Positions 15,943 through 21,127 of a stretch of 64,000 nucleotides of DNA are shown here, in pieces; the stretch's first letter is position 1, and every line of letters begins with the position of its first letter. Both the position numbers and the translations under genes were made by a program. This DNA is from Escherichia coli (GTDB lineage Bacteria; Pseudomonadota; Gammaproteobacteria; Enterobacterales; Enterobacteriaceae). Location: the NCBI RefSeq assembly GCF_030013595.1, contig NZ_CP122768.1; one strand, given 5' to 3'. The notes under the pieces are model-generated. The model did no database searches. It was not told where the DNA came from and worked only from the letters and a program-made list of their open reading frames with translations.

Positions 15943-17325
15943 ATGGCTAGTTGGCAACAAGGAATCAACTCAGGCGGCTTTCTTGCTGGTATCGGTGGGC
16001 AAAACTCAAATGCGCCAAAGGCAAGTGATGTAAGTGAGGCGTTGGCCTATATTCGCCAGAACAACGAAATGGAGCGCTCAGGTCGCAATAACATCGGCCT
16101 TCAGGCGTTGCAGGGGCTTGGTAGTGTCGCTCAAACATATCAAGCCGCAAAGCAACAGGAATTCCAAAAAGAATATGCGGCAGCCATCCAGTCAGGTGAT
16201 CGGCAGCAGGTGCGAGATCTGATGACCAAATATCCTGGTCAATTAGAGAAGATTCAGTCTGGTATGAAGTGGGCAGACGAAGACCAGCGCAATTCTATCG
16301 GCACCTTAGCGGCTGGCGCACGCCTTGCGTCATCGTCTCCAGAAGCAATGCAATCATGGCTGCAAAACAACGCCAAGGAACTGGCGCGCGTCGGTGTTGA
16401 CCCTAACAGCGTTGCTCAGATGTATCAGCAAAACCCTTCAGGATTTGGTGAGTTTGTTGATCACCTTGGAATGGCTGCTCTTGGTCCGATTGATTACTTC
16501 AATGTTCAGGACAAGATGGCTGGTCGTGAAATTGACCGAGGCAAACTGGCAGAGACAATCCGCAGCAATCAGGCTGGCGAGGCGCTAACAGCACGAGGCC
16601 AGAACATCACGATGCGCGGTCAGGACTTATCTGCTTCTACTGCGCGACGAGGTCAGGATTTGGCAATGCAGCGAGCGTCAACAAGACGAATCGCTGGGAA
16701 TGATGAGCGTACAGTTCAGTTATCAGATGGCAGAACTGTAACGGTAGGCGGGAAGCTTCACGGCGCTGGGGCTAATGCGTTCTACGAAGGCATCGACAAC
16801 GAGGGGAATATGGTTCGCGTCCCTGCTGGCTCTATTGCCGCTCCGGCTACATCGGCAGCAAGCGCGCAGAATTACGCAATGAAGAAAGATCTTGATGCAA
16901 TTTCTGGTGCATCAATTGACGATCTTGGCTTCATGACTGGCATTACAGGCTCTTCAGGTTCTCCTGCTCTTGGTGCAGATATTCGTAGCCGTGCATCTGG
17001 TGGTGATCAGAGGAAACTATACAACGCTGCACAGCGAATCCAAGGAAAGATGCAGAATCAGGGCATTGCAGCAGCCAGAGACATGGGGGCATCCGGTATC
17101 AACACCGTTGCAGAAGCAAAGATGTATTTTCAAGGTATGCCACAGGTTGATTTCTCAAGCCCTGAAGCACTGCAACAATCAATGCGCGACATTCAGCAAT
17201 ATACCGACAATTACAACCAGCAATATAACGTTAATGTTGGTAAATCTCAGCGGCAGCAATCTCAACCTGCACAGGTATCACAGCCAGCAGCCAGCAGTAA
17301 CTTTTCTTCACTATGGGGTGATTAA
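15943..17325 (+). CDS. Ejection protein, P22 gp20-like
   Basis: 460 aa; position and composition as P22 gene 20. Confidence 0.7.
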
Positions 17326-19430
17326 TGGCTAAAGCATGGAAAGATGTTATCGCTTCTCCACAGTATCAGGCGTTAGCACCAGAACAAAAAGCGCAGGCTC
17401 AGGAGCAATACTTCAATGAAGTCGTGGCCCCGCAAGCCGGAGAAAGTGTAGAGCAGGCTAAGCAGGCTTTTTATGCTGCCTATCCACTACCATCAACGAA
17501 TGAAATAGACCGATACCAATCAGCAACTCAAAATATTCAACATACATCATCTGATAATTCTCTTGCGTCAGGGTATGCAAAGTTAGCTACTCAGCAAAGA
17601 GAGGGGCTTGAGCGTTCAGCAGAACAGGGAGCCAGTCTTGGGGCTGCGATGCGCGATGCTATAACAGGCGAAAGCCGAATGACTCCAGAGATGGAGAGAC
17701 TGCAAAATGTCGACCTTGCCCCAGAGTTAACCTCACTCAGCATGGATGCTCTAAAAGCTCGATGGTCTCAACTTTTCGGCTCTGACGCATCTCAGGAAAA
17801 GATTCTTCAGAGCATGGGAGCGAAATTAAGGCAGGATGAGAAGGGGAACACTATCGTTTCCCTGCCATCCGGTGATTATGCTCTGAACAAGCCGGGTTTA
17901 TCGCCGCAAGACGTGGCATCGTTTCTGGCTAATGCGCTGGCGTTTACACCAGCGGGCAGGGCTGGAACGGTGCTTGGTGCCATAGGAAAATCAGCAGCTA
18001 CAGATTTAGCACTACAGGGAGCCACCAGCCTTGCTGGTGGAGAAGATATTGATCCGTTACAAACGGTAATTTCTGCTGGCATTGGTGGTATTGGTAAGGG
18101 GCTGGAAAATACAGCGAGTGCGGTTTCGAGGGCTGTTCGTGGTGATATGTCGCCTGAAGCAAAGGCTGCTGTCGACTTTGCATCGGAAAGAAATCTGCCG
18201 TTAATGACCAGTGACATGCTGAAAGATAAAACCTTTATGCAGAGTCAGGCTCAGACATTAGGCGAAAGAGTTCCTTTTTTTGGAACCGGTAAGAATCGGC
18301 TGAATCAACAACAAGCACGAGAAAATTTAGTCAGAACATTTAGCGATGGTCTGGGTGGTATTTCTGATAAACAGCTTTATGAATCTGCGACTAAAGGGCA
18401 ACAAAAATTCATTGAGGCAGCAGGAAAGCGATATAACCGCATAATTGACGCTATGGGGGATACCCCTGTCGATCTCTCAAACACGGTAAAAGCTATCGAC
18501 AATCAGATTGCCGTGTTAAGCCGCCCGGGCAAATCTCAGGATAGAGCCGCGGTAAAAGTCTTGCAGCAATTTAAAGACGATATCACCAGCGGGCCAAATG
18601 ACCTGCGTCTGGCGAGGGAAAACAGAACCGATCTTCGAAAGCGATTTATGGCGTCATCTGACACTGTTGATAAAGATACGCTCCAGAAAGCCAGCGATAT
18701 TATCTACAAGGCATATACGGCGGATATGAAAAAAGCCGTAGCCAAAAATCTTGGAGCAGACGAAGCCATTAATATGGCAAGGGTTGATCGCTCATGGTCT
18801 AAATTCAATGACATGATGGGAAGAACGCGCGTTCAAAAGGCAATAGCCAGCGGCAAGGCCACGCCTGAGGATGTAACAAAACTCGTTTTTAGCCAAAGCC
18901 CATCAGAACGTTCTCAGCTTTACAGGCTTCTGGATGACAATGGTAGGCAAAACGCACGAGCAGCCATAGTTCAGAATGCTGTAGATAAGGCGACTGATCC
19001 GTCTGGAAATATCAGTGTTGAGAAGTTTATTAATGCGTTACACCGGAACAGGAAGCAATCAGCAACTTTCTTTAAAGGCGTACATGGAAAGGAACTGGAC
19101 GGCGTTATTAAATACCTCAACGATACAAGACACGCGGCAAAAGCGAACGTTCAAAACTTAAATGGTCAGCAGCTTTATGGATTGTTAGTTGGTGGTGGCA
19201 TCATAAACGCAGCAGTATTAGCGGGGATGCTAAAAACGGCTGCGTTTGTTGTTCCTGCTGCTGGTGCCGTAGGCGGAGCAGCGAAGGCATACGAAAGCCC
19301 TGTTATACGAAATGCCTTGTTACGTCTGGCAAATACGCCAAAAGGTAGCACAGCATATGACAGAGCGATCAGTACGGTCACACAATCGCTCACCAGAGTC
19401 GCACAGGCATCACAAAAAGAAGCTCAATAA
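17325..19430 (+). CDS. Ejection protein, P22 gp16-like (longer than I recall for P22)
   Basis: 701 aa; last gene of the rightward virion operon. Confidence 0.7.
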   Translation: MAKAWKDVIASPQYQALAPEQKAQAQEQYFNEVVAPQAGESVEQAKQAFYAAYPLPSTNEIDRYQSATQNIQHTSSDNSLASGYAKLATQQREGLERSAEQGASLGAAMRDAITGESRMTPEMERLQNVDLAPELTSLSMDALKARWSQLFGSDASQEKILQSMGAKLRQDEKGNTIVSLPSGDYALNKPGLSPQDVASFLANALAFTPAGRAGTVLGAIGKSAATDLALQGATSLAGGEDIDPLQTVISAGIGGIGKGLENTASAVSRAVRGDMSPEAKAAVDFASERNLPLMTSDMLKDKTFMQSQAQTLGERVPFFGTGKNRLNQQQARENLVRTFSDGLGGISDKQLYESATKGQQKFIEAAGKRYNRIIDAMGDTPVDLSNTVKAIDNQIAVLSRPGKSQDRAAVKVLQQFKDDITSGPNDLRLARENRTDLRKRFMASSDTVDKDTLQKASDIIYKAYTADMKKAVAKNLGADEAINMARVDRSWSKFNDMMGRTRVQKAIASGKATPEDVTKLVFSQSPSERSQLYRLLDDNGRQNARAAIVQNAVDKATDPSGNISVEKFINALHRNRKQSATFFKGVHGKELDGVIKYLNDTRHAAKANVQNLNGQQLYGLLVGGGIINAAVLAGMLKTAAFVVPAAGAVGGAAKAYESPVIRNALLRLANTPKGSTAYDRAISTVTQSLTRVAQASQKEAQ

Positions 19431-19448
19431 CTGGTTAGCCATGGATGG

Positions 19449-19637
19449 TTATTTCCTTAGCACATGAAACAATGTTTGCTTTAATTCCACCCATACAATT
19501 ATGACCACTATAGACAGACAAAAGAAACTGAATGCATTGGCATCACGATCGAAACCTTCTCCGGCACTAAATCCGTAAAAGGTCATAAAAAATATAAAAA
19601 TTGCGCACTTTGCAACGTTTACAAATTTTTTCTTCAC
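19449..19637 (-). CDS. Hypothetical small membrane protein (moron, antisense to late operon)
   Basis: 62 aa, two predicted hydrophobic helices, low GC; lies where P22 carries sieA. Confidence 0.4.
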   Translation of the reverse strand: MKKKFVNVAKCAIFIFFMTFYGFSAGEGFDRDANAFSFFCLSIVVIIVWVELKQTLFHVLRK

Positions 19638-20011
19638 ACCAACCTCCTTAGTTTTGCTCAGGATACCAGATGATACTTTATTGGTGGAGTGGTGTGTGAA
19701 AACGTGTCAACGACAAACCATCCACAACTTGGACGAATGATTTAGCAAAAAGTGCTATTTTTGGTGTTTAGTGTCATAGAAAAGTGAATAGCTCACTTTT
19801 CAACATTGCATGAAACTTGCAGGAAATGTGACATTACCTTATAGGTAATTTCGGCGAAAATGCAGTAAATGTGAAACGTAATGGTTTAAACATGTCGCTA
19901 AAGTGGTTGTAAGTTAGCCTCCGAAGGATTGCTGATAGCTTTGTTATAGTATTAAATGACATTTGACATAGTTGGATACTTAGCTGTGGCTATCAAGATG
20001 GAGGTGTGTTC

Positions 20012-20455
20012 ATGCTTACTTGTTTTGATGTCGCCGACTACTTCCTGTCGCGGTGTGACGAGGATAGCGGTGACACAATCTCTAATTTAAAATTACAAAA
20101 GCTTGTTTACTATGCTCAGGGGTTTTCATTGGCGTTGCTTGGTGAGCCTCTTTTTCAGAATAAGATGGAAGCTTGGATGCATGGCCCTGTTGTCCCTGAG
20201 CTTTATCGCCGTTATAAACAATATGGTAATGGAGCTATCCCTTCTCCAGAGTCTTTTGATGCTGAAAAATTCAGCGAAGAACAGTTAGAGCTATTAGAAG
20301 AAGTCTGGGATGTTTTTGGGCAATTTTCTGCCTGGAAACTGAGGAACATGACACACGAAGAGTCACCATGGAGATCAAACTATATTGAGGGTGTTGGTGG
20401 TTCTGAAATTAGCTCTAAGGAGATGGCAGAGTACTTTGCAACTCGGATTAACTAA
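20012..20455 (+). CDS. DUF4065 / Panacea-domain protein (putative antitoxin, PanA/SocA-like)
   Basis: Motif LKLQKLVYYAQGFSLALLGEPLF...EAWMHGPVVPELYRRYKQYG typical of DUF4065 phage-associated proteins; GGAGG 7 nt upstream of ATG 20012 (the ORF track uses GTG 20006). Confidence 0.65.
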   Translation: MLTCFDVADYFLSRCDEDSGDTISNLKLQKLVYYAQGFSLALLGEPLFQNKMEAWMHGPVVPELYRRYKQYGNGAIPSPESFDAEKFSEEQLELLEEVWDVFGQFSAWKLRNMTHEESPWRSNYIEGVGGSEISSKEMAEYFATRIN

Positions 20456-20459
20456 CGAG

Positions 20460-20879
20460 ATGGCAAGAAAATCTAAAAGGATTATCCCCCCTGCTGAATC
20501 TACAGGTAAGTTAAAGTTAGGGCCGCAGTCAGGGGGGAATTCAGATCAAAAGAAACCGAAATTTTCATTCTGTTACATCCAAAGCTCTCACTGCATAACG
20601 AAATGCCAAAAAGATGAGAAAGCTGGCTTAGCTGATAAATTATACAGATTAAGTCAACTAACATGGGCAGAGATTAAGCAGCAAGGTAGGCATAAGCTTG
20701 GATTTGAGAAGATTGCAAGGGGTGCAATTAAAGCTGGTATCCCCGGTCATATAACGGAAGACGTAGATCATTTCTTGGCTTTTAGATTTGATGATTTGAA
20801 AGCCATGGTTGGTTATCGTCTTGGATCGACATTTTTTGTTATATGGCTTGATAGAGAGTTCAACCTATACAAGCACTAA
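20460..20879 (+). CDS. Uncharacterised partner protein of the Panacea-like gene (candidate toxin/effector)
   Basis: ATG 4 nt after upstream stop; 139 aa, basic N-terminus, Cys cluster (CYIQSSHCITKC), C-terminal GYRLGSTFFVIWLDREFNLYKH weakly like RelE/ParE-type toxin C-termini; followed by strong terminator. Confidence 0.5.
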   Translation: MARKSKRIIPPAESTGKLKLGPQSGGNSDQKKPKFSFCYIQSSHCITKCQKDEKAGLADKLYRLSQLTWAEIKQQGRHKLGFEKIARGAIKAGIPGHITEDVDHFLAFRFDDLKAMVGYRLGSTFFVIWLDREFNLYKH

Positions 20880-20908
20880 TAAAACCCACCGTCAGGTGGG
20901 TTTTTTTG
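20879..20908. terminator. Strong, probably bidirectional intrinsic terminator
   Basis: Hairpin acccacc-gtca-ggtgggt flanked by an A-run upstream and a T-run downstream; sits between convergent genes. Confidence 0.8.
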
Positions 20909-20923
20909 TTGGAGATAAAATGG

Positions 20924-21127
20924 TTAACCAAATCGATCCTTAAAGCGTCTATCGCTGTTGCGTCTCTCCATTTTACTGTTGCAGTACGGACAAAGATGCT
21001 GTTTCTTTCCATCGATAGTCCATGTGAAGTACTTTTTCTTAAATCCAGCACCACAGATATCGCAACTTCTTGGTTTAAACATACTGGCTATGAAGATAAG
21101 AACAACAAATCCTATGATCCATTCCAT
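20924..21127 (-). CDS. Hypothetical small membrane-anchored zinc-ribbon protein
   Basis: 67 aa; N-terminal hydrophobic helix then CDICG...CPYC (CxxC...CxxC); low GC. Confidence 0.45.
   Translation of the reverse strand: MEWIIGFVVLIFIASMFKPRSCDICGAGFKKKYFTWTIDGKKQHLCPYCNSKMERRNSDRRFKDRFG

Follow-up and report, generated by a model that had tools for sequence, protein, structure and literature searches.

The two-gene operon at positions 20012-20879 of the window analyzed here, a 64,000-nucleotide stretch of Escherichia coli DNA (assembly GCF_030013595.1, contig NZ_CP122768.1), is a PanA-PanT module whose second gene belongs to the partner cluster designated T1. The first gene, panA (20012-20455, + strand), encodes an acidic, single-domain Panacea (DUF4065) protein of 147 aa, and the second, panT (20460-20879, + strand), a basic protein of 139 aa, hereafter T1, that has a RelE fold, is related to NsnC, the effector of an anti-phage system, and on the strength of fold and homology is a putative endoribonuclease. 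We regard this identity as settled. As to function, we favor, with confidence that is about evenly balanced, a model in which T1 is a conditionally activated effector with PanA as its sensor or regulator, likely directed against phages, and not a constitutive toxin. The locus, the Panacea assignment, the prediction of an RNase-like partner and a toxicity test are all already known, and the locus alone adds little: the cassette is present in sequenced phages and E. coli genomes and has been bench-tested. The homology of T1 to the PB-BECR1 domain of NsnC appears in neither of the two relevant papers, those describing Panacea and the Menshen system, and connects a Panacea family that is large and lacks an explanation with an established effector of defence.

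Both open reading frames (ORFs) that the original prediction, made from the letters of the window alone, had singled out as a candidate toxin-antitoxin (TA) or abortive-infection pair were recovered exactly. The panA gene runs from ATG 20012 to a TAA stop at 20453-20455, preceded by a GGAGG Shine-Dalgarno sequence at 20000-20004, and panT runs from ATG 20460 to TAA 20877-20879, with 4 nt (CGAG) between the first stop and the second start. The Panacea assignment of gene 1 was likewise borne out: PanA matches Pfam PF13274 (SocA_Panacea) with an E value of 3.2e-24 and 86.4 bits over model positions 1-112 of 113, far beyond chance, and also matches phrog_1281 (E 6e-60). It carries no extra N-terminal domain, consisting of a stand-alone Panacea domain, has a pI of 4.57, and is named 'Panacea domain-containing protein' in RefSeq. 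Against the NCBIfam model SocA_antitoxin (NF047745) it scores 71.4 bits (E 7e-20), short of the equivalog cutoff of 190 bits. Judged by these profile scores, gene 1 is a Panacea-domain protein and not SocA, because the PF13274 match is strong while the SocA equivalog score is far too low. The pair thus shares the Panacea domain with SocA-SocB, the Caulobacter type VI TA system that contains the founding Panacea antitoxin, but differs from it both in the PanA score, far below the SocA cutoff, and in the partner, since T1 has a RelE fold and is unrelated to SocB.

T1 (pI 9.74) consists of a Lys/Arg-rich disordered tail (residues 1-30) and a core domain (residues 31-139). Pfam yields nothing for it with the threshold relaxed to E ≤ 10; it scores below the cutoff against NCBIfam MAG6450_fam and matches no NCBIfam toxin model, and a sequence-profile search of the PDB with the family alignment found no toxin and a single chance match (E 1.2). 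Two methods nevertheless place its fold with RelE/YoeB/HigB in the RelE/ParE superfamily, also known as Barnase/EndoU/Colicin/RelE (BECR), through structural matches that are weak by Foldseek E-value and have 4-14% sequence identity. The AlphaFold2 model contains the N-terminal strand, two helices and antiparallel sheet of a RelE-type fold, whereas by sequence T1 does not fall within any curated RelE/ParE/YoeB/HigB/YafQ family. The three C-terminal strands of the model (residues 104-131) and the high pI agree with the description of gene 2 in the original prediction as a basic protein with a C-terminal beta-rich tail; the N-terminal tail is modeled with a predicted local distance difference test score (pLDDT) of 55-65. 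The Cys cluster described there exists in this protein (C38, C45 and C49) but is not a conserved motif, with Cys at the three positions in 5, 54 and 37 of 61 homologs, respectively, and a zinc- or metal-binding Cys cluster was rejected.

The only sequence-level relative of T1 with a functional context is NsnC, which acts as effector in the anti-phage system Menshen (NsnABC; Li et al. 2025, NAR, PMC12065111). NsnC's C-terminal domain, termed PB-BECR1, belongs to the Barnase/EndoU/Colicin/RelE superfamily, has YafQ as its best structural match and carries an H-R-H triad (PMC12065111). T1 residues 31-135 match positions 178-279 of 284 of the PADLOC NsnC profile with an E value of 9e-6, ten of ten diverse T1 relatives match the same profile at ∼180-284 (E 2.6e-11 to 0.025), and the whole T1 core is matched in all 11 members compared. 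Because ten diverse relatives all match the same region of NsnC, we take the homology between T1 and PB-BECR1, as far as profile comparison can establish it, to be real. T1 differs from NsnC in that it is without the inPIN N-terminal domain, and only the tail precedes its core. The surroundings differ too: neither NsnA (ParB-DUF262) nor NsnB (ABC ATPase) is encoded nearby, the neighbors of T1 being panA, a 62-aa ORF and the immI genes, and the Menshen paper makes no mention of Panacea (PMC12065111). Gene content therefore indicates that the locus is not a Menshen system.

In an alignment of 61 family members, E83, R109 and D131 are invariant, H78, K84, R120, Y137 and H139 are conserved in ≥90% of sequences, and K54 is also invariant or nearly invariant across the family. 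The catalytic set of YoeB is E46/R65/H83/Y84. By analogy, the conserved Glu, Arg and C-terminal Tyr-His positions of T1 would resemble this Glu/Arg/C-terminal His-Tyr set, and H78, R109/R120 and H139 follow one another in an order comparable to the H-R-H triad of PB-BECR1. An hhalign comparison of the family profile with one E. coli YoeB sequence did not align the two meaningfully. With the ribosome-dependent mRNA interferases RelE, YoeB, HigB and YafQ, T1 shares the BECR fold and a basic character, and it differs from them in carrying 30 additional residues as a basic tail and an insertion of ∼15 residues that forms a loop at 87-103, in having Panacea as its partner and not RelB, YefM, HigA or DinJ, and in being non-toxic in published over-expression.

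At E ≤ 1e-3, and with clustering at 50% identity, the T1 family counts 864 representatives, whose length is almost always 130-145 aa, and is under purifying selection. None of its members has a Pfam domain or an informative name, and databases call them 'hypothetical protein'. A scan of viral contigs identified 80 T1 loci, and in 75 of these a panA gene lies directly upstream on the same strand (31 distinct pairs). In very different genomes the two genes are almost always neighbors, with the same order and a spacing of 1-40 nt. PanA is acidic (mean pI 4.8) and T1 basic (mean pI 9.5) in 31 of 31 pairs, and PanA is the more conserved of the two, at 44-71% identity vs 31-52% for T1 across 30 pairs, a comparison in which the disordered tail lowers the T1 figure. 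The pair is carried by P22-like, P2-like and lambda-like prophages and by non-phage DNA. In a Solidesulfovibrio prophage the Panacea gene lies directly upstream of T1 beside a P22-type portal gene; in an Aeromonas P2-like prophage the pair sits between the tail-completion and baseplate genes; and in a metagenomic chromosome (L008) it is found between unrelated chromosomal genes with no phage genes nearby. The neighborhood check proposed with the original prediction thus placed the partner's homologs beside Panacea genes across distant bacteria and phage types.

The five exceptions among the 80 viral loci are three truncated gene remnants and two rearranged loci, L083 and L028. At L083 (3462-5386) PanA is divergent from T1, and further downstream there is another PanA, of 157 aa, together with a second T1-like protein that is more distant and 147 aa long (ending ...ILWWDPHHTVC...); the arrangement looks like tandem Panacea modules. 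At L028 (3688-4423) most of panA is deleted and its last ∼25 codons form an in-frame fusion with a lambda-type tail-assembly (gpI-like) gene, while the T1 gene is intact and starts 1 nt after the fused ORF; judging from this gene structure, the orphan T1 is apparently tolerated without PanA.

The module has a bench record. Kurata et al. (2022, PNAS, PMC8832971) surveyed the gene neighborhoods of DUF4065, named the domain Panacea and defined 88 partner clusters, of which T1 bears the first label. Their Dataset S1 places the pair of Salmonella phage vB_SemP_Emek (YP_006560565.1/YP_006560566.1) in putative toxin cluster T1, with a reciprocity of 4/5, and in the part of that dataset available to us the cluster has at least ∼217 loci, about as many as T2 (PMC8832971). 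PanA is identical to YP_006560565.1 at 145 of 147 positions and T1 to the Emek partner at 137 of 139. Table S1 lists the Emek T1 as a predicted 'mRNase', with 'not toxic' as the experimental outcome and neutralization not applicable, and a second T1, from E. coli MOD1 (WP_077635758.1), was likewise 'not toxic', the assays being done in E. coli BW25113 (PMC8832971). For the PanAs that were tested, neutralization was independent of the ClpXP and Lon proteases (PMC8832971). Current data do not support T1 as the toxin of a bona fide TA pair, toxic alone and neutralized by its PanA, and a partner that is non-toxic alone, which the original prediction had named among the outcomes that would refute it, is what the literature reports for both proteins, each expressed from an N-terminally extended ORF. 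We found nothing later on the T1 cluster beyond two papers from the Hauryliuk and Atkinson laboratories, and the relevant accessions were not found in the supplementary text of the NetFlax paper (PMC10440598).

These extensions arise from the choice of start codon. The gene overlaps given in Dataset S1 are -62 for Emek (161 aa) and -20 for E. coli MOD1 (PMC8832971). In the window, they correspond exactly to the in-frame codons TTG 20394 (161 aa) and TTG 20436 (147 aa). In the family alignment an invariant Met stands at the position of ATG 20460, and several relatives have a frame that is open from just a few codons before it (3 in L005). Public records give four lengths (139, 147, 160 and 161 aa), and the RefSeq annotation for E. 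coli is now 139 aa. Read from these coordinates, the published T1 constructs probably carried 22 (Emek) and 8 (MOD1) extra N-terminal residues. In view of the model, we do not think that the extensions explain the lack of toxicity, because the tail that they lengthen is disordered to begin with, yet they leave the verdict open. Since both tested ORFs began at upstream TTG codons, a TA or abortive-infection role for the pair is neither shown nor excluded by the published tests, and the 'not toxic' verdict, which concerns one of the two Panacea-partner clusters with the most members, is worth testing again.

We favor a conditionally activated T1 because of the two negative toxicity tests, the orphan T1 of L028, the higher conservation of PanA, and the existence of other RelE-fold effectors gated by sensor modules, such as NsnC in Menshen and Cami1. 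The latter, a cA4-activated, RelE-like, ribosome-dependent RNase of type III CRISPR systems, is also a RelE-fold effector that is silent until a sensor is triggered, is among the structural matches of T1, and may serve as a mechanistic analogy. In the mechanism we propose, acidic PanA would bind basic T1 directly and keep it inactive; T1, once activated, would cleave RNA, most likely mRNA or another translation-associated RNA, in the manner of RelE-family enzymes, and translation in the lysogen would stop. The benefit would likely be exclusion of, or abortive defence against, superinfecting phages, which the location in a prophage beside the sieA slot and immI suggests. A sensory role has been hypothesized for Panacea in antitoxins that neutralize through other domains (Ernits et al. 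2023, PMC10440598). A more specific version, which we hold to be possible but tentative, is that T1 is inert until PanA, sensing a phage-derived cue, switches it on, making the pair a two-gene anti-phage system with an ancestry shared with NsnC. Such switching would account for the negative results on toxicity, for an orphan T1 that survives and for PanA being more conserved than its partner, and, if true, a trigger-activated PanA-T1 defence would clarify what the Panacea domain senses.

Several observations weigh against a conditionally activated effector. RNase activity, PanA-T1 binding and phage defence rest, for the T1 cluster, on inference and not on experiment, and with both toxicity tests negative, growth arrest by T1 is unproven. 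PanA has no match among the PADLOC defence models. The putative catalytic residues of T1 were assigned by position in the fold and by analogy to YoeB. On the + strand upstream of panA, a scan for the sigma-70 consensus found no site from which the pair would be expressed in the lysogen. Finally, an AlphaFold2 model of a PanA-(GGGGS)6-T1 fusion, built with a paired alignment of 29 rows, had a predicted template modeling score (pTM) of 0.54, with both domains confident and their relative placement not, which speaks neither for nor against a direct complex. In this model the linker and tail are disordered, and only tail segment 4-13 of T1 rises slightly, to a pLDDT of 70, with a beta-bridge, so that the tail may, on the evidence of the model, dock on PanA. 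The first 17 residues of the tail carry a loosely conserved motif with the consensus M-x-K-x-x-I-K-x-P.

Two other accounts have to be weighed, each of which we consider unlikely. According to the first, the pair is a classical type II TA addiction module, in which T1, a constitutively active, RelE-like mRNA interferase, is neutralized stoichiometrically by PanA, the prophage is thereby stabilized, and the 'not toxic' result is a cloning artefact. The antitoxin-first operon with its translational coupling, the acidic/basic pairing and the RelE-family toxin fold of T1 all fit this account, as does the fact that both tested ORFs were N-terminally extended relative to a start at the invariant Met (ATG 20460). 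However, the extensions only lengthen a disordered tail and should hardly cause the enzyme to unfold, neither of two independent constructs was toxic, and an intact T1 persists without a functional panA at L028. Type II modules typically autoregulate, and for this PanA, moreover, lacks a DNA-binding domain. In such modules the antitoxin usually evolves faster than the toxin, and here the reverse is seen.

The second account, equally improbable in our estimation, gives the pair a non-defence role: T1 would be specialized to bind or process RNA without lethal effect, in partnership with PanA, and the pair would serve the phage's own life cycle, for instance through effects on translation or on host physiology while the phage is lysogenic or grows lytically. 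The non-toxicity of over-expressed T1 is in keeping with this, and so is the genomic setting. The genes are co-directional with the late operon, and since the + strand showed no terminator-like site from gene 16 up to the cassette, late read-through into the cassette is possible; at L028 T1 is directly coupled to a tail-assembly gene, and in P2-like and lambda-like prophages the module lies inside virion-gene clusters. Yet the module also occurs outside phages, between the unrelated chromosomal genes of L008, and hops from one unrelated insertion point to another, in the way of morons and defence genes. The closest sequence relative of T1 with a known context is, furthermore, an anti-phage effector, and the validated Panacea partners are all toxins (PMC8832971). 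The proposal in the original prediction that gene 2 is a toxin type not yet described, to which the missing Pfam family and the 'hypothetical protein' labels lend some color, can be set aside as highly improbable given the RelE-superfamily fold, the homology to NsnC PB-BECR1 and the existing placement in PanT cluster T1 with an mRNase prediction (PMC8832971).

The window holds the right half of a P22-like prophage, with genes for terminase, portal, coat and ejection proteins, immI (mnt, arc and ant), tailspike and integrase. The last ejection-protein gene (17325-19430) is followed by a 62-aa ORF on the - strand (19449-19637) and then by a mobile cassette, or moron (19629-20906, + strand), made up of an upstream region, panA, panT and a terminator. 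The layout is that of a PanAT pair, which calls for a same-strand partner no more than 100 nt away and for two or three genes in all: here the gap is 4 nt, and a non-coding region of ∼370 nt and a terminator form the borders. The intrinsic terminator (20881-20910, + strand) consists of a stem of 10 bp (5 G-C pairs) at 20881-20904 with a 4-nt loop, followed by a T run; the Emek record also annotates this feature as a rho-independent terminator, and homology of the cassette stops there, giving it a sharp right edge. The strong terminator and the low GC content named in the original prediction are therefore present, the panA-panT pair having a GC content of 0.40-0.43 compared with 0.45-0.53 in the virion genes and 0.37 just upstream. 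Its placement of the pair in the position of P22 sieA holds in that this is an accessory locus between the ejection-protein genes and mnt, but not for the slot itself: in P22, sieA lies on the minus strand directly after gene 16, and here the 62-aa minus-strand ORF fills that slot, with the cassette to its right before the mnt region. Kinship with SieA was dropped as a candidate; genome position alone is comparable, and no sequence comparison was made.

The cassette is 99% identical in Salmonella phage vB_SemP_Emek and E. coli phage phiv205-1, and matches to it occur in 176 of 5426 complete E. coli genomes (∼3%), with flanks that vary. The related phages JEP4 and UPF_BP1 match the window only at 19440-19675 and lack the cassette. 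Because it is shared across phages and genomes with differing flanks and is absent from JEP4 and UPF_BP1, the cassette, as far as these alignments indicate, behaves as a moron, and the panA-T1 module can be described as promiscuous, its landing sites being different hot spots in prophages of the P22-like, P2-like and lambda-like types. Emek is the closest characterized counterpart, with the same DNA (99% over 19629-20906), the same terminator and the same position after the ejection-protein genes. It differs in its left neighbor, a 129-aa ORF in place of the 62-aa ORF, and in the annotation of the partner, which starts at an upstream TTG to give 161 aa, the version that was cloned, as opposed to 139 aa from ATG 20460 here.

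The AT-rich non-coding region upstream of panA (19638-20011, GC 0.37) presumably holds the promoter or promoters of panAT and of the divergent 62-aa ORF. The original prediction had called this region AT-rich and promoter-like; the base composition agrees, but the sigma-70 consensus scan of the + strand yielded no site. A perfect TTGACA occurs at 19963-19968, but no acceptable -10 hexamer lies 16-18 nt away. The region has no significant RNA structure (fold z-score -1.65) and no Rfam family match; it contains a 14-nt direct repeat, TGCAG(G/T)AAATGTGA, at 19818 and 19861. Positions 19632-20011 are 96% identical to 2495-2890 of phage EC.P3 (L090), and fully identical over ∼19632-19850, whereas the match of EC.P3 to panA and panT averages only ∼84% identity and covers about half of the query. 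From the alignment, the EC.P3-like stretch would mark a recombination joint or else a regulatory region common to the two phages.

Additional small genes surround the cassette. The 62-aa ORF to its left (19449-19637, - strand) encodes a hydrophobic protein, has a strong Shine-Dalgarno sequence (AAGGAGG) and matches phrog_21338, of unknown function, with an E value of 5e-45; it is without annotation in the RefSeq record of E. coli W4, and in Emek the 129-aa ORF in the same place is different. Just to the right of the terminator, a 67-aa ORF (20924-21127, - strand) encodes a protein whose N terminus holds a hydrophobic helix and whose two CxxC pairs are suggestive of a zinc ribbon; PHROG contains no match for it, and the E. 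coli W4 RefSeq record leaves it unannotated. A 105-aa protein with a signal-peptide-like N terminus (21464-21781, - strand) matches phrog_19844, also of unknown function. Its gene lies directly downstream of mnt on the same strand, overlapping the mnt stop, and is probably another accessory gene expressed in the lysogen. Between arc and ant, at 22280-22346 on the - strand, the Rfam family sar RNA (RF00262) is matched below threshold, with 29.3 bits where the gathering score is 43 (E 0.004), in the same position as the antisense sar RNA of P22.

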